Part shown: positions 4,332 to 30,011 of the stretch, piece by piece | How the letters are laid out: the number at the start of each line of letters is the position of its first letter | Position numbering within the stretch: the stretch's first letter is position 1 | Assembly: GCA_002779355.1 (NCBI GenBank) | Contig: PEWS01000040.1 | Location: forward strand, 1 to 32,375 | DNA: 32,375 nt | Direction: 5' to 3' | Source of the DNA: Candidatus Nealsonbacteria bacterium CG07_land_8_20_14_0_80_39_13 | Lineage (GTDB): Bacteria; Patescibacteriota; Minisyncoccia; Minisyncoccales; GCA-002779355 | Program-made: the position numbers and the translations under genes | The notes under the pieces: generated by a model | The model's database searches: none | The model's input: only the letters and a program-made list of their open reading frames with translations | What the model was told of the DNA's origin: nothing

Positions 4332-6233
4332 ATTAGTTTTTTCTTCTATTTCTTTCTTTAGTTTTTGGATAAAATCCTCTATCTTTATCGCTCCCAAGTC
4401 TTTATTCTTGGAGCGGATGGAAACGGAATTGGCTTCAATTTCTTTGTCTCCGATAATTAAGATGTAGGGGATTTTTTCCATTTCAGCCGCTCTGATTTTC
4501 TTGCCGAGGGTATCGTTTTTTTTTTTGACTTCTACACGGATATTATTCTTTTTCAGCTCATCAGCTGTTTTCTGGGCAAACTCCAGATGTTTTTCACTTA
4601 TCGGTATTAAGGAAACTTGGACAGGGGATAGCCATAAAGGGAACGCTCCGGCATAGTGCTCTATTAAAAGCCCTAAAAATCTCTCAAAAGAGCCCATTAG
4701 CGCCCTGTGGAGCATGAATGGCTGCTCTTGTTCGCCCTTAGAGTTAATAAAGGTCATATTGAACCTTTCCGGCAAATTGAAATCAAATTGTAAGGTTGAG
4801 CATTGCCATTCCCGTCCGAGAGCGTCTTTTATTTTGTAATCTAATTTCGGACCGTAGAAGGCAGCTTCTCCTTCCTGTTTCTCGTATTCAATATTTAATT
4901 CTTTAGCTACTTTTTCCAAAACTTCTTCGGTAAATTTCCAGCCCTTTTCATTGCCGGCATATTTGTCCTTATTTTTCCTGTCCCTCAAAGAGAGATATAT
5001 TTTGTAGTTCTTGAAACCGAAAGCTTCAAAATATTCTTTAATGAAGTTCGCCACCCTTTTTAGTTCATCTTCAACTTGTTCTTTGGCGCAGATGATATGA
5101 GCGTCGTCTTGAGTGAATCCTCTGACCCTGGTCAGTCCGGAGAGTTCGCCTGATTTTTCATAGCGATAAACCGTTCCGCATTCAGCCCAGCGTAGAGGAA
5201 GTTCTTTGTGGGAACGGAGCTCTGATTTATAAATCCTTACATGGAAGGGGCAATTCATCGGCTTAAGCAAATATTCTTCTTTTTTTACTCCTTCTTTTTC
5301 TTTTTTTCCTTCTGATTGCTGATAGTCTTTCAATGATTTGCTTACTTCAAGAACGGGATACATGCTGTCGTTGTAAAAATTCCAATGGCCTGATTGCTCC
5401 CATAAATTTCTGCTGCCGATATGAGGGGATCTGACTAATTGATAGCCATTGTTAAGGTGTTTTTTGTACCAAAAATCCTCAATTATTCTCCAAAGGAGAG
5501 CGCCTTTTGGTTTCCACATCGCCAAACCCAACCCGACAACAGGGTCAAGCAGAAACAGGTCTTTTCCGATTACCCTATGATCTCTTTTTTCCGCTTCATC
5601 CATCATTTTTGAGTATTTCTCCAATTCCTCTTTTGTCTCAAAAGCCAAACCATAAATCCTTGTCAGCATTTTATTCTTTTCGTCTCCCTTCCAGTAGGCG
5701 CCGGCTGTTTTTGTCAATTTAAAACTGCCATCGACAATTTCTTCGGTATTTTTTATATGAGGGCCCTTGCACAGATCAATGGAATCTCCGCTCTCGTAAA
5801 CAGAAATTGTTTTATCGGTCAATTCCTTTATCAATTCCAATTTATAGGGCTGTCCGCGGAATATTTTTTTAGCTTCTTTTTTGGAGACGATCTTCTTTTT
5901 GAATTTAATATTCTGCTTAATCAATTCCCTCATCTCTTTCTCAATCTTTACTATGTCCTCGGGCGATAGTCCGAATTTTTGTTTTAGGTTTGGGATTTGT
6001 CGTCCAGAGGACGACCTCGGCCAGAGGCTGACCAGCCTTTGGCTGGAGCCTCTGGCTGGGGATTTGGGATTTGGGATTTGGGATTTAACGATTTTGACTT
6101 CAGAAAAGTCAAAATCGTAATAGAATCCCTTATCTATTGCCGGCCCGATGCCAAATTTAACTTTCGGGTAAAGTTTTTTAACCGCCATAGCCATAATGTG
6201 AGCGAGCGAATGTCTTGCAATTTCTATGTTCAT
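4326..6233 (-). CDS. thrS: Threonyl-tRNA synthetase, lacking the N-terminal TGS domain and carrying a repeat-derived insertion
   Basis: A 635-aa ORF that is colinear by eye with E. coli ThrRS from the N2 editing domain onward. Shared landmarks are HSLAHIMAMA, KPMNCPFH, RVRGFTQDDAHIF, GEAAFYGPK and HRALMGSFERF, plus a C-terminal anticodon-binding domain. Confidence 0.95.
   Translation of the reverse strand: MNIEIARHSLAHIMAMAVKKLYPKVKFGIGPAIDKGFYYDFDFSEVKIVKSQIPNPKSPARGSSQRLVSLWPRSSSGRQIPNLKQKFGLSPEDIVKIEKEMRELIKQNIKFKKKIVSKKEAKKIFRGQPYKLELIKELTDKTISVYESGDSIDLCKGPHIKNTEEIVDGSFKLTKTAGAYWKGDEKNKMLTRIYGLAFETKEELEKYSKMMDEAEKRDHRVIGKDLFLLDPVVGLGLAMWKPKGALLWRIIEDFWYKKHLNNGYQLVRSPHIGSRNLWEQSGHWNFYNDSMYPVLEVSKSLKDYQQSEGKKEKEGVKKEEYLLKPMNCPFHVRIYKSELRSHKELPLRWAECGTVYRYEKSGELSGLTRVRGFTQDDAHIICAKEQVEDELKRVANFIKEYFEAFGFKNYKIYLSLRDRKNKDKYAGNEKGWKFTEEVLEKVAKELNIEYEKQEGEAAFYGPKLDYKIKDALGREWQCSTLQFDFNLPERFNMTFINSKGEQEQPFMLHRALMGSFERFLGLLIEHYAGAFPLWLSPVQVSLIPISEKHLEFAQKTADELKKNNIRVEVKKKNDTLGKKIRAAEMEKIPYILIIGDKEIEANSVSIRSKNKDLGAIKIEDFIQKLKKEIEEKTNL
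5992..6118. repeat. Composite repeat inside thrS: GGGATTT unit, 59-nt GC-rich module, (GGGATTT)x4, 13-bp perfect inverted repeat
   Basis: GGGATTT lies at 5992-5998 and the GC-rich module at 6001-6059. Four GGGATTT units span 6059-6086. The inverted repeat ACGATTTTGACTT/AAGTCAAAATCGT spans 6088-6118. Confidence 0.85.
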
Positions 6234-11605: not shown

Positions 11606-12091
11606 ATGGCAAGTAGGCATTTGTCTAGAAGCATAGTTTTACAGGCTCTTTACGAGTGGGATTTTTTCAATAAAAAGAATAATCTGGAGAAGATAGTTGA
11701 GAAAGATATTGAGGAAATGGGGCCGGGATTGGAAGACAAGAGTTTTATTTGGGAATTGACCGCCGGAGTAGTGGAAAATTTTGAAGCCCTTAATAAGATA
11801 ATTGAACAGGCGGCTCCGGAATGGCCAGTTGATCAGATCAGTATCGTTGACAGGAATATTTTAAGAATCGGCTTGTATGAGCTTTTATATGGAAGTAAAG
11901 AAGCTGTTCCCCCTAAGGTGGCCATTAACGAATCAATAGAGTTGGGGAAAACATTCGGTGGAGAGAATTCAGGGAAATTCATAAATGGTGTTTTAGGGAC
12001 AGTCTATAAACAAGCGGGGATAACTGAACCCGATGAAAAAGATGAGGATAATGGAGATAATGAAAAAAAAGATGATGATGAAAAAATTTGA
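11606..12091 (+). CDS. nusB: Transcription antitermination factor NusB (acidic C-terminal tail)
   Basis: [14 protein letters not shown] and the overall NusB-like helical pattern ([25 protein letters not shown]). It ends with TGA at 12089-12091. Confidence 0.85.
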
Positions 12092-12770
12092 AAAATTTGA
12101 AAAAGAAATTGGCGTTAATTTCAAGAATAAGGATTTACTGACTCAAGCTTTCTGTCACAGATCTTATCTGAACGAAAATACGGATTTTAACTTGAGCAAT
12201 AACGAGAGGTTGGAATTTTTGGGAGACGCGGTTCTGGAGTTGATAATAACGGAGAATCTCTACGTTAATCAACCGGAAAAATCGGAAGGTGAATTGACGA
12301 ACTGGAGAGCGGCTTTGGTGAATACAAATATGCTTTCAAAAATTGCCGGCGAGCTCGGATACAATGACTTTCTTTTGCTATCCAAAGGAGAGGAAAAGGA
12401 AAAGGGAAAGGCAAGGCAGTGTATCTTAGCTAATACATTTGAAGCTGTTTTGGGAGCAATTTACCTTGATCAGGGGATAGAAGTCTGCCGGAAATTCATT
12501 GAAAAAAATTTACTCAAGGAATTGTCCAATATTGAAAAAAACGAACTTTTTAAAGACGATAAGTCGCGTTTTCAAGAAGAGTCTCAAGAAAGGGCAGGCA
12601 TTACTCCCATTTATAAGGTTCTGGGAGAAGAGGGGCCTGACCATGACAAGGTCTTTACTATTGGGGTTTTTCTTGATAAAGAATTAGTAGCTAAGGATAC
12701 CGGCTCGTCAAAGCAAGAAGCAGAGATAAAAGCGGCTAAAAAGGCATTAGAGGTAAAAAATTGGAAATAA
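12072..12770 (+). CDS. rnc: Ribonuclease III
   Basis: The RNase III signature [13 protein letters not shown] plus a C-terminal dsRBD ([12 protein letters not shown]...[16 protein letters not shown]). The ORF is open from 12033. Comparison with the E. coli N-terminus favours a start in the MMM run near 12072, overlapping the nusB 3' end. Confidence 0.85.
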
Positions 12771-23471: not shown

Positions 23472-24038
23472 ATGAAAAAAAAGCCAAAGGTGGCGATGGT
23501 TATTTCTTTTAGGGATTTCAGGGATGAGGAGCTTTTTGTTCCGATGGAAATTTTGAATAAGGCGGGGATAGAAACAAAAGTCATTTCCAATAAAAAAGGC
23601 TTGGCGATCGGGGCTGATGGGGGAGAGATTGAGGTTAATATTTTAGCTTCAGAATTAAAAGTGGAGGAGTTTGACGCTATAATTTTTATCGGTGGCCCGG
23701 GCTGTTTGAAAAATCTGGACAACGAAATTTCTTATGAAATTATCCGCCAAACGATTCATCAAGGGAAGATTTTGGCCGGAATATGCATCAGTCCTGTTAT
23801 TTTGGCTAAAGCCGGGGCGCTGAAAGGGAAGAGGGCAACGGTTTGGTCTAATTCAATGGACAAGTCAACTATAAAAATCCTAAAGGAAAATAGGGCTATT
23901 TACCAAAAAGAGCCGGTTGTGGTTGACGGAAATATCATCACATCCTCCGGCCCCTCCTCCGCCAAGGATTTTGCCGGAACTCTTGACAGGATTTTAAAAA
24001 AGAATATACTTGAGACAGGATCCGCAGACAGCAGGTAA
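23472..24038 (+). CDS. DJ-1/PfpI family protein
   Basis: FDAIIFIGGPG and the nucleophile-elbow-like ILAGICISPVILAKAG. Confidence 0.8.
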   Translation: MKKKPKVAMVISFRDFRDEELFVPMEILNKAGIETKVISNKKGLAIGADGGEIEVNILASELKVEEFDAIIFIGGPGCLKNLDNEISYEIIRQTIHQGKILAGICISPVILAKAGALKGKRATVWSNSMDKSTIKILKENRAIYQKEPVVVDGNIITSSGPSSAKDFAGTLDRILKKNILETGSADSR

Positions 24039-24083
24039 TTAAATCCTGCCGAGGAAACAAGTCGTCTTTTTGTTTACCCTTTG

Positions 24084-24104
24084 TCTGCAATAGCAGATTT
24101 TTTT
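24084..24104 (+). terminator. Short hairpin plus T7 run upstream of rplJ (DJ-1 gene terminator or L10-leader attenuator)
   Basis: TCTGC-AATA-GCAGA followed by TTTTTTT. It lies 20 nt upstream of the rplJ ATG. Confidence 0.4.
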
Positions 24105-24123
24105 ATTCACTAAAATCAAAGAT

Positions 24124-24651
24124 ATGCCATTAACTAAAAAACGAAAACAAAATATCGTAGAAAGCTTAAAGAGCAAGTTTGAAAAGCAAAAATCTATAAT
24201 TTTTCTTGACTACTGTGGCTTGAAGGTAAAAGACACTCTCAATTTGAGGAAGAAAATGAAGGAACAGGGATGCGAGTTAAAAATAGCCAAAAAAACATTG
24301 CTCGGATTGATTCTTGACGGCTCGGGACAGGGAATGAAAGAGAAAGTGAAGAAATTGCCCGGGCAAATAGCTATCGGATTCGGATATGAAGATGAAGTAA
24401 TGCCCTTTAAGATTTCAGGAGATTTTTCAAAAACAAATACTAACGTTAAGGTTTTGGGAGGAATATTGAGTACGAAGAAAGATGAATTTTTATCTTCAGA
24501 GCAGGCGATAGTCTTATCGCAATTGCCGAGCAAGAAAGAACTTTTGGCGAAATTGGTAGGAAGCATGAAGTCCCCGATATCAGGCTTCGTCAATGTTTTA
24601 GGGGGGAATCTTAAAGGTCTGTTGCGTGTTTTAAGCCAAATCAAATCATAA
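24124..24651 (+). CDS. rplJ: 50S ribosomal protein L10
   Basis: A 175-aa ORF immediately upstream of rplL, with an L10-like pattern ([21 protein letters not shown]). Confidence 0.9.
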
Positions 24652-24670
24652 TAAATTAACCAAAAAAAAT

Positions 24671-25099
24671 ATGACAGAAGAAATTAAAAAAGAGGAAGAA
24701 GCAGTAGAGGTACCGGAGAAATTTAAAAAATTAGTCGGAGAAATAGAGCAGATGTCCGTTTTGGACTTAGCTGAATTAGTAAAGGTATTGGAGAAGAAAT
24801 TCGGCGTTTCCAGCGCTACTCCAATGGTTATGGTCGCTGCCGGAGGAGTCGCAGGAGGAGCTCCTGCCACAGAAGAGAAATCTTCTTTCAATGTTGAACT
24901 CAAAGCAGCAGGCGACAAGAAAATTGAAGTAATTAAAGCAGTTAGAGATCTTACGGGAAAGGGATTGAAAGAGGCTAAAGATTTAGTTGACGCCGTCGTC
25001 GCCGCTCCTCAAATGATTAAGGAGAATGTTAAGAAAGAGGAAGCGGAAGAAATGAAGAAGAAATTCACTGAAGCCGGCGCCACCGTAGAACTGAAATAA
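24671..25099 (+). CDS. rplL: 50S ribosomal protein L7/L12
   Basis: An Ala/Gly hinge ([12 protein letters not shown]) and the C-terminal domain [24 protein letters not shown]...[22 protein letters not shown]. Confidence 0.95.
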
Positions 25100-25109
25100 G
25101 CGAAAAACA

Positions 25110-25140
25110 AAATCCCGCAGAAATGCGGGATTTGCTTTAT
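25110..25140 (+). terminator. Rho-independent terminator of rplJ-rplL
   Basis: AAATCCCGCA-GAAA-TGCGGGATTT followed by GCTTTATTT. Confidence 0.7.
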
Positions 25141-25183
25141 TTATAATCCTCTTTTTCCAAACGACAAAAGTTTTTGTCATCTC

Positions 25184-25244
25184 GAAAAAAAGTGTCTTGA
25201 ATTTTAGTTTTCTAAATTAGTTTTCTAAAATTCAAGACTTTTTA
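25184..25244. terminator. Bidirectional terminator-like hairpin between the convergent rplL and 531-aa genes
   Basis: A 13-bp perfect stem GTCTTGAATTTTA/TAAAATTCAAGAC (25194-25238) is flanked by A7 on the left and T5 on the right. The loop holds the direct repeat AGTTTTCTAAA twice. A second small hairpin ATGCGA-TATTAG-TCGCAT spans 25254-25271. Confidence 0.6.
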
Positions 25245-25279
25245 TAAAGGGTCATGCGATATTAGTCGCATAACTCTAT

Positions 25280-26875
25280 TTATATAAAGTCTTCGCCCAG
25301 AATAAAGACTTTTTTACCATTGCTTTTTTTGGTTCTTAATGTGCTTTTTAGTTTCTCGAAGTCTTCGTGCTCGGCTTTTTCAGCCAGCTTTCTTGCGCAC
25401 CTTGGCAGCCAGCAATGTTTGAACAGACATCCTTTGCATCCCCCCTTAATTTTTTCCGAACAATCATTGGGGAAAAAATCTTTGTCCGCTCCCATTGCCA
25501 CGACGTTAAGGATGTCGTCTTCACTAAGTAACGATCTGTCCTTACTTGTTTCCATCGTCCCGTTCACGATCCCGATTATCTCATCACCTGCGGATATCGC
25601 GTACCAGACGTCCGATTGCAAGTCTTCCGGTTCGGTCAATTCTTTGTAAGAGAGAGTTTTCTCGGTTCTTCTTGCTCTGGCCTCTTTTTTCCTCAGTATT
25701 GCTAAGGTATCTTTATTTTCTACCGTTATCCGATTGTTTTCTAAGCGGTAAAAAATTTGAATGCCTGTATTTCTTCCCATTGTTGTCACGTCATTAATGA
25801 CGACTGCACCGGTTCTATACCAGTTTCTATAGTATGCGGGAAACGAGGGAATGTCTGCGCCTATCTCAGTGGCTTTTTTCTTCATGGCACTTGTGATCCT
25901 GAACAGCGCCATTGTCTGTGGTTCTCCGCAGAGTCCTTTTACCTGTTCAGATTTGTCAGGCATCATTTCCCCACAACGATAGAATCCTGTCTGTTTCTCC
26001 ATCCACAAATCCAGAACCTTGAAGGTTAAATGCTCTATTTCCTTCTTTTTTCCGATTAGGATAGCATCGCCTATAAGACCGCCAAGACTTAAGTATGGGG
26101 CGTCACCTAGAGAGGTTTCATCTATATGTTTTTCTAAAGGGAGAACCCTTTCGTCCGAACAGTTTTCTAATCTTCCGGTTTTCACTCTTTGTTCTACCCA
26201 GAAATTTAGCATTTTCCCTGCTTGTTTTTTGCACTCACTTCTGATTTTCCTAAAGCTGTTTTTGTCTTCGGACTTATAATAAAGCCTTTCTGCCTCATAA
26301 TGGATGTCGAAGAGGAACTCTGCTTCTTTCAACGCTTCCCTTTTATCGTCAGCCACCGCATATGTCAAGTTTATTATTTGGGGAAGATTCAATGTTTTGC
26401 TTTTTTTCCTAATAACTTTTTCGTTGACTATGCCGATCAATCTCTGAATAGCCGGGTTGTCATTTATTTTAAGCCGTCTGGCTAAGACTTCCGTAGCGCA
26501 CATTTCTCTTCCATTATCGGCAAATTCATGCCCCACGAAACAACAGTGCCCTTCCAATTCTTTTGGCGCAGGTCCCACATCTATGAGAAAATTGCCTTTA
26601 TTGGCTAGGGTAATAATGTCATTAACGTCGAGCTCTCCTTCTACGAGCCTTATTCTATTTTTTTCTATTTTTGAATTTCCGAATCTACTCTCCAGCACCC
26701 AACACATAGTCGAGTCCAGATTAAGCGGTTTACGTATTACGTAATGCCGTTCGTCCACAGTTCTTTCTTCCATTTGCGACCTCTCGTCACTTTGTCCTTT
26801 TGGATTCTTCTTATAAGAACCCTCACGTCCCTTTGGACGGGTACCTTTTAGGGGCACCTTTATTTTGTTCTCCAT
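25280..26875 (-). CDS. Hypothetical 531-aa protein (basic N-terminus, His/Cys cluster, C-terminal 5-Cys cluster), no recognisable family
   Basis: A long uninterrupted ORF convergent to rplL, with its own promoter, leader and terminators. Notable motifs are EGHCCFVGHEFADNGREMC and DCSEKIKGGCKGCLFKHCWLPRC. Confidence 0.8.
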   Translation of the reverse strand: MENKIKVPLKGTRPKGREGSYKKNPKGQSDERSQMEERTVDERHYVIRKPLNLDSTMCWVLESRFGNSKIEKNRIRLVEGELDVNDIITLANKGNFLIDVGPAPKELEGHCCFVGHEFADNGREMCATEVLARRLKINDNPAIQRLIGIVNEKVIRKKSKTLNLPQIINLTYAVADDKREALKEAEFLFDIHYEAERLYYKSEDKNSFRKIRSECKKQAGKMLNFWVEQRVKTGRLENCSDERVLPLEKHIDETSLGDAPYLSLGGLIGDAILIGKKKEIEHLTFKVLDLWMEKQTGFYRCGEMMPDKSEQVKGLCGEPQTMALFRITSAMKKKATEIGADIPSFPAYYRNWYRTGAVVINDVTTMGRNTGIQIFYRLENNRITVENKDTLAILRKKEARARRTEKTLSYKELTEPEDLQSDVWYAISAGDEIIGIVNGTMETSKDRSLLSEDDILNVVAMGADKDFFPNDCSEKIKGGCKGCLFKHCWLPRCARKLAEKAEHEDFEKLKSTLRTKKSNGKKVFILGEDFI

Positions 26876-27113
26876 TTTTGTTTTTTATATATTTTTTATA
26901 TTTTTGGCTTATCTCCCTTCAGATTCTTTCTCTCTTCAGGGTGCCAAGCTGGCCACTAATTTCTTAACGAACAATTTGGCTACCTGAAGAATTCATTTCT
27001 TCCCTTCTGCAATAAAAAACAAAAATGGCTTCTTCCCGCCGTCGGGCGGGACCCCCCGCCTATAGCGGGGTGGCTTTCTCTTTATGGATTTTTAAAGAAC
27101 TACCAATGTTTAC
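26876..27113 (-). promoter_or_regulatory. Structured 5' leader, possibly containing an independent small RNA, upstream of the 531-aa gene
   Basis: Two adjacent GC-only hairpins (27052-27073 and 27035-27050) are followed by a U5-G-U6 run (27025-27014). An imperfect 13-bp-stem hairpin spans 26933-26990. Confidence 0.35.
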
Positions 27114-27120
27114 TGTTTAG

Positions 27121-27150
27121 AGTATAGTATATCTATATATATTTTGTCAA
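27121..27150 (-). promoter_or_regulatory. Near-consensus sigma70-type promoter driving the leader and 531-aa gene
   Basis: On the minus strand: TTGACA (27150-27145), an 18-nt spacer, and TATACT (27126-27121). Confidence 0.55.
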
Positions 27151-27201
27151 ACATTTTTCGGAAAACGCTGATAGATGCTGATATTGCTGATTTCCGTTAA
27201 T

Positions 27202-27265
27202 AAAAAAACAGATTAACCCGTTCCAGCCAGAGGCTGGTCCACCTATGGCGGAAACCCGTTAATCT
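27202..27265 (-). terminator. Terminator-like long interrupted hairpin after the 717-aa gene
   Basis: The outer stem AGATTAAC/GTTAATCT (27210-27217 / 27258-27265) encloses a GC-rich repeat hairpin. A U7 run follows on the minus strand (27208-27202). Confidence 0.45.
27223..27251. repeat. GC-rich repeat copy embedded in a terminator hairpin
   Basis: CCAGCCAGAGGCTGGTCCACCTATGGCGG. Confidence 0.65.
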
Positions 27266-27280
27266 CTTAATTTCAAAATA

Positions 27281-29434
27281 TCAGAAAGTGATTTTGAAGA
27301 CTTCTAAGCCATTAAGAATGTAAATGGTTTTGCCGTTTTCGGAAACGGAGAAGTCTAAAAGATTGTCAAAGCTGTCGCTTTGAAATTGCCTGATAACCTT
27401 TCCTGTTTTGTCCAGAATGATTATCCTTTTTTGAGATGGCTCTGAAATATACAAATAAGGGAGTTCGGTTGAAGTAAAAATCTTTGACAAATCTTTAATC
27501 GCCGGGAAAATATCTATTTTTAAAGTTTCCTTGAATTCGCCGGCGTAATATCTGTATATGGAATTATCTTTTGCCAGAACCCAGACATTGTCGTCAACCG
27601 CCATTGATTTGGCGTCAATATTTCTTGAAGCGTCGGAGGAAAGCCAAGAAACAGCCTCCACCCATTTGGATTTCCCGAGGAAAGGGTATTTTATTATTTT
27701 TCCGGATTTTTTATCCAGAAAGTAAAGATGAGAGGCGAAAGAAGAGACATTGCTCAAATTAGCTTCCGGATAGGGGGGGACCAAGGTGAGGGGATCCTCT
27801 ATTCCCCCTACATTTAGTCCTGTTATCTGATTTGGCCCCGAGAATAAAATCACAAAATCAGTCAGATTTGCGGCTGAATCAAATTTTTGCTCTGTTTCCT
27901 CTTTATTTCCCTGCCCCTTTTCATCCAATCTGAATAATCCTTGAGCATAATGGCTGAAGAAATAATTGTCTTTCCCAAAAGAGATGATCCTTTGCGGAAC
28001 AAAATTTTCCGATTTAAATTGGAAAAATATTTCAGGATTTTTTATTTCCTCCAGATTATTCAGTTCGTTCAATTCTTGAGATATTTTATTTTCCAAGGAA
28101 AGAATTTGTCCCCTTAATTCTTTGGGCACAAAAACCGACTCCTTAATCAAAACAGATATTTCATTCCAGCTTTCTTCAAGGAGAACGTCAGCGTCTTTTC
28201 TTGCTTGAGGGTTTGTTTCTTTCAATAGCAGAAAGCTTTCCGCTTGTTCAACTTTTTGCTCAATTTTTTCAAAATCTTCCCGATAGTTTTCCACTTTTTT
28301 GTTTTCTTGCCAGCTAAAAATCAGAAAACCGATAAATAGGCAGATAAAAAAGGAAAATATCAGGAACAGATTACTTTGAATTCTCCTTGACTCGTCCATA
28401 TCTTTTATCCTCATTTTAAGCTTGAGAACCGGAAAGGAAAAATTATCTAAAGCCGGCAAATTGATATAGAATCTTTTTTTCTGCGCATCCTTTTTTGTTT
28501 TTTTTATCTTTGGCGCAGACGATTTCTTTGTTGTCTTTTTGAATTGGGACTTGAGGAAGTTGAAAACAGGAAGAATAATTTTTTTCATTAAAAGATTCTT
28601 CGCCTTTTTAGCCGGCGCAGTGAATGGAATAAAAACCGCTTCCCTGAAAGAAAATTCTTTTTTCTCGGCTCGGGAGGAGATTCTCTCTTTTTTCTGCGGA
28701 GCTAAGCTATTTTCCTTTAAGTTTTCTTTTACCGGGATTTCTTTTGAATTTCCTTTTTTCGGAGTCTTGTCGTTAAGGAATAGAAGCAGGAAAACGCCTG
28801 AAATAACAGACAGCTCTTTCTTCTTAGATTTAAGAAACAGCTTAAGGCTTTCTCCATTAAAAGGCTTTATTTTAGCTATTTCTTCCGTTAATTTTTTGTC
28901 GGTAAAAAAATCAAAAACATCTTTGGTGAAAGCCATCAGAATATCTCCTTCAGCGATTTTACCCGAGGCAATGTTGCCGAAAACTTTCAATGGAAAAGGC
29001 TCTATGGTTTCATTTTTTATCTTTTCATCAATGTTAATCAGCTGGCCTTCCCTAATCAGGATAAATTTTATATCTCCTGTCTTGGTAAAATTGATTTCAG
29101 AATTTTTTATTGCAATCGCCCCGAGGTTTAAATTGCCCAACCAGCCGACTTCTCCATTTTTCGTCAATTCCTGCAAATATTCATTGGCTTTCTGAAGGCT
29201 TTTCTTTAAAGATTCTTCACTGGAGACCAAAGTTGAACCATAATACCTTTCCCTTATCAGCTTGGCTAATTTATCCAAAAAGGCGACATCGTGGGGGATG
29301 GCGTTTCTAAGAAGTCCGAGCATATATAAGCTTCCGACTCTCCGTTCGTAAACATTTTCCGGCTCATAGCAAAAGCTGTCAAAAATTAAACTCGGTTTCA
29401 AATCGGGATTAAAATGAAATTCAAAAACTTGCAT
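27281..29434 (-). CDS. Membrane protein with an N-terminal degenerate PP2C/SpoIIE-like domain, a K-rich linker, one TM segment and a C-terminal beta-propeller-like region
   Basis: A 717-aa ORF. The N-terminal pattern LGAIAIKNSEINFTKTGDIKFILIREGQ...GKIAEGDILMAFTKDV resembles the PPM fold without clear catalytic Asp motifs. The TM segment is LFLIFSFFICLFIGFLIFSW. The C-terminal part has repeated beta-strand motifs. The fold calls are tentative. Confidence 0.7.
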   Translation of the reverse strand: MQVFEFHFNPDLKPSLIFDSFCYEPENVYERRVGSLYMLGLLRNAIPHDVAFLDKLAKLIRERYYGSTLVSSEESLKKSLQKANEYLQELTKNGEVGWLGNLNLGAIAIKNSEINFTKTGDIKFILIREGQLINIDEKIKNETIEPFPLKVFGNIASGKIAEGDILMAFTKDVFDFFTDKKLTEEIAKIKPFNGESLKLFLKSKKKELSVISGVFLLLFLNDKTPKKGNSKEIPVKENLKENSLAPQKKERISSRAEKKEFSFREAVFIPFTAPAKKAKNLLMKKIILPVFNFLKSQFKKTTKKSSAPKIKKTKKDAQKKRFYINLPALDNFSFPVLKLKMRIKDMDESRRIQSNLFLIFSFFICLFIGFLIFSWQENKKVENYREDFEKIEQKVEQAESFLLLKETNPQARKDADVLLEESWNEISVLIKESVFVPKELRGQILSLENKISQELNELNNLEEIKNPEIFFQFKSENFVPQRIISFGKDNYFFSHYAQGLFRLDEKGQGNKEETEQKFDSAANLTDFVILFSGPNQITGLNVGGIEDPLTLVPPYPEANLSNVSSFASHLYFLDKKSGKIIKYPFLGKSKWVEAVSWLSSDASRNIDAKSMAVDDNVWVLAKDNSIYRYYAGEFKETLKIDIFPAIKDLSKIFTSTELPYLYISEPSQKRIIILDKTGKVIRQFQSDSFDNLLDFSVSENGKTIYILNGLEVFKITF

Positions 29435-29477
29435 AATTTTATTATACTATTTTATTCCAATATGTTAAAATATCAGT

Positions 29478-29951
29478 ATGGTGGATAACAAAAAAAACGA
29501 GAAGGAAACTGTCGTCGGAGGCACTTTTGACATACTCCATGACGGACATAAAAAATTATTAAGAGAAGCTTACGGAATTGGAGGGAGAGTGATGATCGGC
29601 TTAACTTCTGACGAAATGGCTCTGCAGACAAGGAACAGGGAGATAGCCGGCTTTGAAGATAGGAAGAAAGAATTAGAACTTTTTATTTCCGGAGAATTAA
29701 AGTCAAAGCCGGATGTTGTGGAAATTAAAGATAAATTCGGCTCTACCCTTGAGAGGGATTTTGATTATATAGTGGTTTCTCCGGAAACTTTCCCGACCGC
29801 CATAGCCATCAATGAGGAAAGAAAAAAAATAAATAAAAAGTCGATAGAGATTATTAAAATAGATTTTGTCTTAGCCGAAGACGGAAAACCTATTTCTTCA
29901 GAAAGAATATCAAAAGGAGAAATAGATAAACACGGCAAACTACTAAGCTAG
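29478..29951 (+). CDS. Cytidylyltransferase-fold protein, archaeal/eukaryotic-type phosphopantetheine adenylyltransferase-like
   Basis: VVGGTFDILHDGHKKLL (the GxFxxxHxGH nucleotidyltransferase motif) and IGLTSDEMA. About 157 aa. Confidence 0.7.
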   Translation: MVDNKKNEKETVVGGTFDILHDGHKKLLREAYGIGGRVMIGLTSDEMALQTRNREIAGFEDRKKELELFISGELKSKPDVVEIKDKFGSTLERDFDYIVVSPETFPTAIAINEERKKINKKSIEIIKIDFVLAEDGKPISSERISKGEIDKHGKLLS

Positions 29952-30011
29952 CTTGTAGGAATTAGCTTGTAGGCGGGTAGCCTACAACCTACTGCCCTAC
30001 AACCTACAAAC
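29949..30011. repeat. TTGTAGG / CCTACAA direct and inverted repeat cluster between the PPAT-like gene and ybaB
   Basis: AGCTTGTAGG occurs twice, then TTGTAGG-CGGGTAG-CCTACAA forms a hairpin, then CCTACAACC occurs twice. Confidence 0.8.

Follow-up and report, generated by a model that had tools for sequence, protein, structure and literature searches.

Phosphoesterases of the DHH/DHHA1 type, such as NrnA, the DhhP/GdpP-type phosphodiesterases of c-di-AMP and pApA, NrN, PPX1 and family II pyrophosphatase, share a two-domain fold, and Cdc45 and archaeal GAN are RecJ-like DHH proteins that have lost catalysis, kept the fold and serve as scaffolds. In E. coli, hairpins in the pnp and rnc leaders are processed by RNase III in exoribonuclease autoregulation, and the ROSE and fourU RNA thermometers are leaders that sequester the ribosome-binding site (RBS). 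Bacteria of the Candidate Phyla Radiation (CPR) depend on nucleotide scavenging, their RNA-turnover enzymes are poorly known and, to our knowledge, hardly any cis-regulatory RNAs have been described in them. Here we analysed a contig of 32,375 nucleotides from Candidatus Nealsonbacteria bacterium CG07_land_8_20_14_0_80_39_13 (PEWS01000040.1), referred to as the window, in which an open reading frame (ORF) of 531 codons, ORF531, is preceded by a long structured leader. An original prediction, made from the letters of the window alone, had regarded this gene as an orphan accessory module standing where rpoB-rpoC would be expected. Our analysis indicates instead that ORF531 is probably a positional ortholog within a family of DHH/DHHA1-like proteins, that it probably encodes a degenerate pseudo-enzyme binding nucleotide or RNA, and that it may be under post-transcriptional control by a conserved leader. 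Related loci and proteins are designated below by L and P numbers, respectively.

The coding sequence of ORF531 lies at 25280..26875 on the minus strand, convergent on rplL (24671..25099, plus strand) as had been predicted, with GTG codon 7 and ATG codon 35 as other possible starts. Searches of the protein against Pfam, NCBIfam, PADLOC, PHROGs and PDB sequences gave nothing significant; PADLOC returned zero matches and the sole PHROGs match (E 0.009) was to a family of unknown function. A word-indexed search of 5.8 billion proteins recovered its own 90%-identity cluster and nothing else, a cluster of 33 members (15 of them aligned, at least 98% identical and from several data sources) that includes PIP22783.1 from a Candidatus Nealsonbacteria metagenome-assembled genome. 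An exhaustive HMMER search of 1.84 billion cluster representatives yielded as real relatives only P0016 (361 aa, phmmer E 2.6e-7) and P0018 (491 aa, E 5e-5), while a third match, P0017, was judged spurious because it is an SH3-repeat protein. When P0016 was used as the query, 69 proteins of ~350 aa were retrieved whose names were "hypothetical", absent or obviously wrong, the few with a named source organism coming from Patescibacteria. In a genome scan the family was present in many Parcubacteria, Microgenomates and other CPR lineages, at 80 loci that are mostly patescibacterial. BLASTP aligned ORF531 with P0016 in two collinear segments (E 4e-12 and 3e-5), and hhalign against a 55-member family alignment scored 97.9% (E 6.7e-13, 319 columns, ORF531 residues 52-496). 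This significant full-length profile homology places ORF531 in an unnamed Patescibacteria DHH-like family, of the P0016, P0040 and P0087 type; judged on homology, it belongs to an unannotated, Patescibacteria-wide DHH/DHHA1-like family and hence is no orphan. The statement that the protein has no recognisable family therefore stood for Pfam, NCBIfam, PADLOC, PHROGs and PDB sequences and fell with the deeper searches, and orphan status was contradicted both by the hhalign result and by the Foldseek matches of a family member described below. Literature searches found no description of this DHH-like family or of the leader motif. A "hypothetical orphan" of a CPR genome can now be placed in a definable DHH-type family that is widespread in Patescibacteria and lies outside Pfam and NCBIfam.

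The family has the consensus THxxP(H/D)LDE..A.WLL; (D)xGGGRFD(E/H)H; ECAATLVA; NDLKG..PFDLA; SDN; GNVQIF; IR..EQ; W; LLNGS; C..C..CPWY..GL.RCR, whose first elements we take to correspond to DHH motifs I-IV, and in which LLNGS replaces the DHHA1 GGGH motif. The C-terminal cluster of four cysteines (Cys4) is present in most members and absent from the P0087-P0098 subgroup. The AlphaFold2 model of P0016 (pLDDT 93, pTM 0.86) found yeast exopolyphosphatase PPX1 (2qb6) as its best PDB match in Foldseek (E 1.1e-5, probability 0.99), followed by H. pylori 6mtz, NrN (9lq9 and 9lqa) and Borrelia DhhP (9r7o), so that all best PDB matches are DHH/DHHA1 enzymes; against a viral structure library its top matches were again DHH phosphohydrolases. 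Among the 58 aligned sequences (57 relatives and ORF531), Pfam DHH (PF01368) was matched below its cut-off by 5 (best E 6.5e-4) and ChrB_C weakly by 22 (best E 1.7e-6). A PDB profile search with the family alignment gave chance matches only, NCBIfam run on five members gave nothing, and ORF531 itself has zero match to Pfam DHH or DHHA1 above the gathering threshold. As supported by the predicted model of P0016, the family is one of two-domain DHH/DHHA1-type phosphoesterases. In locus L036, a DHH-like paralog (L036:6310-7851) forms a fusion protein with a LigT/2H phosphoesterase domain (Pfam E 4e-9), and a canonical Cys4-bearing member (L036:7953-8969) follows directly, the operon being preceded by a copy of the leader hairpin (5470-5588). 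The LigT fusion points to RNA-end or nucleotide chemistry.

Within this family ORF531 is exceptional. Three residues, H16, D22 and H82 in P0016 numbering, never vary across the 55 aligned members and two more, D80 and D123, are nearly invariant; the syntenic orthologs retain H..PD.D and FD(H/E)H. In ORF531, motif I (H-x3-D-x-D) reads R48-K-P-L-N52-L-D54, with R48 in place of the invariant His, N52 at the D/H position and only the last Asp retained. Motif III is V114-G115-H116 against D-(H/E)-H in the family, where the last His is invariant, and the nearly invariant Asp of motif IV (NDLKG) is aligned to K153 or V154. Among aligned family members these ligand replacements are seen in ORF531 alone. 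The motif III region (E108-C126, ELEGHCCFVGHEFADNGREMC; 26498..26554, minus strand), which in the family reads GGGRFD(E/H)H, has in the window an 8-residue insert and FVGH; the insert, just before V114, contributes H110, C111 and C112 to an extra His/Cys cluster. The second half of the protein is better preserved: the motifs SDN, R, GNVQIF, R..E, W and LLNGS are represented by D341, R350, Q373-I374, R395, E398, W424 and N438-G439-(T), and the C-terminal cluster (C472, C480, C483, C488 and C493; 25397..25462, minus strand) aligns with C..C..CPWY..GL.RC, with C472, C480, C483 and C493 at the four family positions and C488 extra. Both Cys/His motifs quoted in the original prediction, EGHCCFVGHEFADNGREMC and DCSEKIKGGCKGCLFKHCWLPRC, were found in the translation, and the C-terminal cluster proved to be a real feature, conserved in the wider family. 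Between the DHH-like and DHHA1-like domains lies a helical insertion of ~95 residues (approximately 202-296; 25988..26272, minus strand), which hhalign leaves unaligned to the 350-aa family, which forms helices in the model and which is common to the 400-440-aa syntenic subfamily. The AlphaFold2 model of ORF531 has pLDDT 75 and pTM 0.70, with residues 1-39 disordered, and its Foldseek matches in the PDB are weak (E 0.17-1, TM about 0.2-0.3), 8 of the top 10 being archaeal RecJ/GAN or Cdc45. As these matches are non-significant, family membership of ORF531 rests on profile homology. From the aligned residues we infer that the two-metal centre has been lost or remodelled while the ligand-binding half is retained, and that ORF531 would no longer hydrolyse phosphoesters via the canonical two-metal DHH centre. 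By analogy with the precedent of Cdc45/GAN, it is most likely a nucleotide- or RNA-binding pseudo-enzyme acting as regulator or scaffold, and the new His/Cys loop may hold a different metal. The nucleic-acid-binding role suggested at first is plausible in the broader form of a nucleic-acid or nucleotide role, given the DHH/DHHA1 fold, the LigT fusion in a relative and the basic tails. A match to a known enzyme family, which the original prediction had named as evidence that would speak against it, was found at the superfamily level, and the window protein itself lacks the catalytic signature of its family.

The position of the gene is shared with related genomes. An ORF717-like gene, a DHH-like gene and then convergent rplL-rplJ follow one another, completely or in part, at six related Parcubacteria loci. 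In L096 (GCA_004196295.1), L097, L098 and L099 a family member of 387-441 aa is convergent on rplL-rplJ, and in L073 (Candidatus Nealsonbacteria CSMAG_2115) the DHH-like gene is likewise convergent on rplL-rplJ with a Fic gene in between; L100 is a short contig that covers the upstream pair, its rplL side lying outside the coverage. In L096, L097 and L100 the gene preceding the DHH-like gene encodes a protein of 660-666 aa (664 aa in L100) that has no Pfam domain, and a truncated 264-aa gene stands there in L099. Beyond rplL-rplJ, DJ-1 and/or YceG follow wherever the related contig reaches far enough. Since the six loci share this gene order, ORF531 is regarded as the positional ortholog of their DHH-like genes. 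It has diverged far more than its surroundings, with identities of 22.7% to the L096 gene (E 4e-4) and 21% to the L073 gene, compared with 66-75% for rplL, 40-52% for rplJ, 47-51% for YceG, 56-63% for DJ-1, 32-60% for FtsX and 39-45% between ORF717 and its counterparts in L096 and L097. ORF717 and the DHH-like gene may be functionally linked. The lack of rpoB after rplL is therefore a conserved feature of the lineage, and ORF531 is no insertion: rpoB is indeed absent from the window, as had been noticed, but the accessory insertion drawn from its absence is not borne out by a gene order conserved in at least six related loci. In L073, the closest named relative, the gene between the DHH-like gene and rplL is of the Fic/DOC family (L073:1745-2815), and the convergent gap beside rplL therefore tolerates gene insertion.

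The leader of ORF531, counted from the -10 hexamer to the ATG, measures ~239 nt and is strongly structured (folding z = -5.7 versus shuffles, and z = -8.0 when extended to codon 45), in keeping with the structured leader of roughly 240 nt that had been predicted. At its centre is a hairpin (26934..26989, minus strand) composed of a 13-bp outer stem, an A/C 1x1 loop, an 11-bp inner stem and a 4-nt loop, with an AAUU/AGCU core. A covariance model derived from the window and L073 hairpins (R1) and a second model (R2) score the window hairpin at 90.6 and 79 bits. R1 detected two further copies in L097 (E 1e-7 and 3e-7) and R2 one copy in L098 (E 2.9e-16) and three in L036 (E 3.4e-6, 1.1e-5 and 7.8e-4), giving eight instances in five species (one each in the window, L073 and L098, two in L097 and three in L036). 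In a four-sequence test 96.8% of the pair cells were standard and changes on both sides occurred in 12 of 24 pairs, a result matched by 0 of 500 shuffles, and slid controls were 27-46% paired. With all eight instances, in the register taken from cmsearch alignments, 179 of 185 cells pair and double changes occur in 17 of the 24 pairs, where shuffles average 74% paired and 10.1 pairs with double changes and none of 2000 matches. Sequence identity between instances is as low as 40-57%. Compensatory changes preserve the hairpin in four other species, ahead of homologous genes. Among the 179 standard pairs are 29 G-U pairs, which the opposite strand would turn into A-C mismatches, and reverse-strand covariance scores are far lower (e.g. 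95.7 versus 23.6 bits); the hairpin is thus sense-strand-specific, which argues for RNA. The AAUU/AGCU core and the A-C mismatch beside a U-G pair are common, not universal, and L098 has a perfect 27-bp helix.

All eight copies lie upstream of a gene and in the same orientation as that gene. Five of them stand in leaders of units encoding DHH-like proteins (the window, L073, L098, the second L097 copy and the first L036 copy); the first L097 copy precedes a 66-aa CxxC..CxxC ORF in the same unit as the L097 DHH-like gene, and the second and third L036 copies precede small unknown ORFs. Orthologs in L096, L099 and L094/95 lack the hairpin upstream, as do about 80 canonical loci of the family. 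As these orthologs demonstrate, it is no obligatory companion of the gene, and the constant co-occurrence of leader and ORF that the original prediction had proposed to check was not upheld. R1 run over 80 family loci recovered only the L036 hairpins, weakly (E 0.001-0.09), and a marginal match in L039. The canonical loci L002-L004 share no leader, L002 being leaderless. Two pattern scans of metagenomes for the hairpin gave 0 and 6 matches, all 6 of which failed the covariance model. In Rfam 15 there was zero match for the window leader, either at the gathering threshold or at E <= 10, and for the L097, L036, L073 and L014 leaders at E <= 0.1. From its pattern of covariation, the leader is a candidate new cis-regulatory RNA motif outside Rfam, with good covariation support, in CPR bacteria. 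In L097 a single leader (L097:4380-5001) carries two copies, the first before the 66-aa CxxC...CxxC mini-protein (4620-4820) and the second abutting the start of the DHH-like gene with a Shine-Dalgarno in its 3' arm; farther upstream a Shine-Dalgarno is followed by AUG-UAG, a start-stop pair.

Several further elements surround the hairpin. Near the 5' end of the transcript lies an invariant leader box, Box A (TAGTTCTTTAAA; 27091..27102, minus strand), whose exact 12-mer also occurs in the leaders of L014, L036 (three times) and L097, with close variants at the second L097 copy and in L100. Minimum free energy (MFE) and centroid folds place Box A in a predicted first hairpin (27071..27105, minus strand). 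Next come two GC-rich hairpins (CCCCGC..GCGGGG and UCCCGCC..GGCGGGA; 27034..27070, minus strand), an insert between Box A and Box B that is specific to the window lineage and absent from the L073, L097, L098 and L036 leaders. A U-rich anti-RBS arm of 17 nt (CCAUUUUUGUUUUUUAU; 27012..27028, minus strand) is 100% complementary to 26888-26872 (duplex -16.7 kcal/mol), and just upstream of the conserved hairpin is the purine-rich Box B (GAAGGGAAGAAA; 26996..27007, minus strand), identified by eye; GGGGAAGGA-like stretches occupy its position at both L097 copies and at the second and third L036 copies. The target of the anti-RBS arm, an A-rich ribosome-binding region containing the AUG at 26875-26873 (26872..26888, minus strand), forms the 3' arm of a perfect 17-bp helix. 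Mean unpaired probability from -15 to +5 is 0.16 (AUG about 0), against 0.81 +/- 0.08 (minimum 0.54) when the upstream leader is shuffled, and the MFE folds of the L073 and L097 leaders likewise bury the Shine-Dalgarno or the start codon.

A mechanism can be proposed from these features. Transcription from the TTGACA-18-TATACT promoter would produce the ~240-nt leader, in which the predicted 17-bp helix would bury the AUG and the A-rich ribosome-binding region. Translation would then be off by default and would be switched on when some event opens or cleaves the leader, a form of post-transcriptional control. The likeliest trigger may be a dsRNA-specific factor that acts on the long hairpin, for instance RNase III, or else the binding of the DHH-like protein itself; these two proteins are proposed as the factor recognising the hairpin by analogy with pnp and rnc autoregulation.

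Other features of the leader were recorded as well. A transcription attenuator formed by the GC hairpins and the U-run was considered and rejected as non-canonical, with an 8-nt gap from the hairpin C to the U-run, and the terminator scan called no minus-strand terminator at 27070-27010. In the extended MFE fold the Box A region (27100-27083) pairs with 26773-26757 around M35 (AGUUCUUU with AAAGAACU; UCCAU with AUGGA) and codons 7-34 are covered by four small hairpins. In L100 (L100:2297-2329) Box A lies inside a 10-codon upstream ORF (uORF; MKFFKRKKWR) with its own GGAGGG Shine-Dalgarno, and the other instances are without a uORF.

We therefore favour, as the probable reading, a positional ortholog that has become a binding pseudo-enzyme controlled through its leader, yet several observations weigh against it. 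The structural match of ORF531's own model to DHH proteins is non-significant (E at least 0.17). D54, D99 and H116 remain while H110, C111 and C112 are new, so that loss of ligands is no proof of inactivity. The covariation alignment is structure-guided and its eight instances come from five species only, and orthologs without the hairpin exist, as stated above. Moreover, the window hairpin stands 59 nt from the AUG and without a Shine-Dalgarno, unlike the L097 and L036 copies, and the first AUG has no nearby Shine-Dalgarno (an A-rich tract only), whereas M35 has a good one (GAGAGG). A start at M35 also fits the family N-terminus, and GTG codon 7 could use GGAG as Shine-Dalgarno; on the other side, N-terminal extensions rich in K, R and E are present in the orthologs P0097 and P0098 as well, and it is precisely the first AUG that the 17-bp helix covers. 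In a different view of the protein, ORF531 would still be an active phosphoesterase or nuclease whose metal centre, holding for example Zn or Fe, was rebuilt from D54, D99 and H116 together with H110, C111 and C112, with the same cellular role as the orthologs, e.g. nanoRNA or dinucleotide turnover. The ORF is intact in all 15 aligned of the 33 cluster members, from several data sources, the model is confident in its core, where most of residues 45-240 have pLDDT 80-94, the Cys cluster persists along with the DHHA1-like motifs on the substrate side, and the new His/Cys residues are located exactly in the motif III loop. Nonetheless, H16, D80 and D123, invariant or nearly so in 55 members, are replaced only in ORF531, zero Cys-ligated active centres occur among the 55 aligned relatives and we know of none described for DHH-family enzymes, and we consider an active enzyme rather unlikely. 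Very unlikely, in our opinion, is that ORF531 is decaying towards a pseudogene under relaxed constraint, perhaps after takeover by a paralog. Extreme divergence relative to the flanking genes and the loss of catalytic residues would fit such decay, as would the population data (10 SNPs, 7 of them nonsynonymous, at a density about 3x that of the flanking sequence); but all six ORF717 SNPs are nonsynonymous too, so the pattern is not specific to ORF531 and not diagnostic of selection. Zero frameshifts or stop codons occur among the variants of the 15 aligned cluster members, several motifs of the family survive together with all four of its Cys positions, and the promoter and leader show perfect conservation, a 441-nt stretch running from the ORF717 end to ORF531 codon 9 being 100% identical in four contigs. 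As for a lineage-specific orphan accessory module in the place of rpoB-rpoC, homology to a widespread family, conserved gene order in related genomes, lack of mobile-element or defence signatures and a composition equal to that of the surroundings leave it hardly credible, even though no curated family is matched and the word-indexed search yields the gene's own cluster only.

The leader can also be explained in other ways. The hairpin could be a palindromic operator acting at the DNA level, or a MITE- or REP-like repeat dispersed among intergenic regions, with no cis-regulatory RNA involved, and the crowding of copies (three within 6 kb in L036, two within 0.5 kb in L097), the unrelated small ORFs behind some of them and the unvarying sequence of Box A, as expected of a DNA site bound by a protein, are in its favour. 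We hold this to be improbable, since 8 of 8 copies are oriented with the downstream gene and lie between the promoter or upstream gene and the start codon, the 29 G-U pairs and much lower reverse-strand scores are strand-specific, stem identity falls to 43-70% while 96.8% pairing is retained, and terminal repeats and target duplications were not seen. A more ambitious proposal, to which we give a similarly small chance, is that Box A and the hairpin form a new cis-regulatory RNA class marking a small Parcubacteria regulon, of which ORF531 would be the nucleotide- or RNA-binding reader in autoregulation or in nucleotide or nanoRNA sensing. The regulon would comprise DHH-like and DHH-LigT phosphoesterases, Zn-ribbon proteins and other small proteins, and ORF531, deprived of its catalytic metal ligands, would keep for this purpose its substrate-binding domain, Cys4 knuckle and basic tails. 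The reading of ORF531 as a leader-controlled pseudo-enzyme, which we prefer, makes it an example from nature of a DHH enzyme that keeps its place in the genome and is possibly turning into a pseudo-enzyme.

As originally described, ORF531 forms a transcription unit of its own, with a separate promoter and terminators on both sides. Its promoter, with the -35 hexamer TTGACA at 27145..27150 and the -10 hexamer TATACT at 27121..27126 (minus strand, 18-nt spacer), matches the consensus at 11 of 12 positions and was one of the two top-scoring sites in a scan of 24000-30000, which overall was mildly enriched (17 sites versus 11.5 expected). It is independently supported, because Box A starts exactly 18 nt past the -10, as it does at two near-consensus L036 promoters. 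Downstream of ORF531, the predicted 13-bp hairpin (25185..25248, either strand) has a perfect stem (GTCTTGAATTTTA, 25194-25206, and TAAAATTCAAGAC, 25226-25238) and, with A7 and T5 on its flanks, resembles a terminator whichever strand is read; it was missed by the terminator scan because its loop is 19 nt. The loop (25204-25229) is a perfect tandem of two TTAGTTTTCTAAA units and closely resembles the leader Box A TTAGTTCTTTAAA. Directly after rplL, a GC-rich bidirectional terminator hairpin (25110-25133) ends that gene. The 5' boundary of the ORF531 cassette is a composite terminator-like structure followed by T7 (27202..27273, minus strand), which ends ORF717 as had been foreseen and in which an outer stem, AGATTAAC../..GTTAATCT, surrounds two short GC hairpins; the GC hairpin pair of the ORF531 leader (27070-27034) is similar in style to this pair.

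The upstream neighbour ORF717 (27281..29434, minus strand) is without a Pfam family and has one hydrophobic segment; rplJ (24124..24651) precedes rplL, and an RNase III gene is encoded at 12033-12770 of the window. The neighbours of ORF531 are housekeeping genes and the GC content of its region equals that of the surrounding sequence. An anti-phage defence or mobile-element gene was considered and rejected, given these neighbours and no PADLOC or significant PHROGs match. In the related Nealsonbacteria locus L073 the Rfam L10_leader model has a match ahead of rplJ (L073:4105-4234, 50.6 bits), and upstream of the window rplJ (24039-24123, a gap of only 85 nt) there is no match at gathering score. 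Between the window and contig L001, 5 of 7 differences fall within 24 nt (26210-26233) in the ORF531 insertion domain; these clustered differences, C215R, M222I and three synonymous changes, suggest a small recombination patch or a local hotspot.

Compared with described systems, the family of ORF531 shares with the DHH/DHHA1 phosphoesterases the two-domain fold, motifs I (H..P[DH].D), III (FD[HE]H) and IV and a DHHA1-like second domain, and differs in falling below Pfam and NCBIfam thresholds, in having LLNGS for GGGH and in the Cys4 cluster of most members. ORF531 departs further, lacking the His of motif I and the Asp of both motif III and motif IV and carrying the ~95-residue insertion and basic tails. 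MYG1/UPF0160, a DHH-superfamily 3'-5' RNA exonuclease (PMC6582341), was a lead because of its similar N-terminal motifs (TH..FH.DE / GG.YD...DHHQ) and similar size, and membership is unsupported, 0 of 58 sequences matching Pfam UPF0160 at E <= 1. Cdc45 and GAN are the best, though non-significant, matches of the ORF531 model, and they indicate no specific relationship or replication role. On the RNA side, the likeness to thermometers lies in a window start region held in an AU-rich helix, in G-U-rich stems with an A-C mismatch and in a 3' arm that holds the Shine-Dalgarno at the second L097 copy and the second and third L036 copies, whereas there is no Rfam match and in the window, L073 and L098 the hairpin stands about 60 nt from the start with no Shine-Dalgarno. 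With the pnp and rnc leaders, the ORF531 leader has in common a long (24-27 bp), near-perfect hairpin in the 5' untranslated region ahead of a gene whose product is a putative enzyme of RNA or nucleotide degradation, together with RNase III in the window; sequence similarity is lacking and the likeness is one of mechanism by analogy only. The protein, in turn, is not categorically new: it is a new degenerate variant within a known superfamily, reached through a family lacking description.

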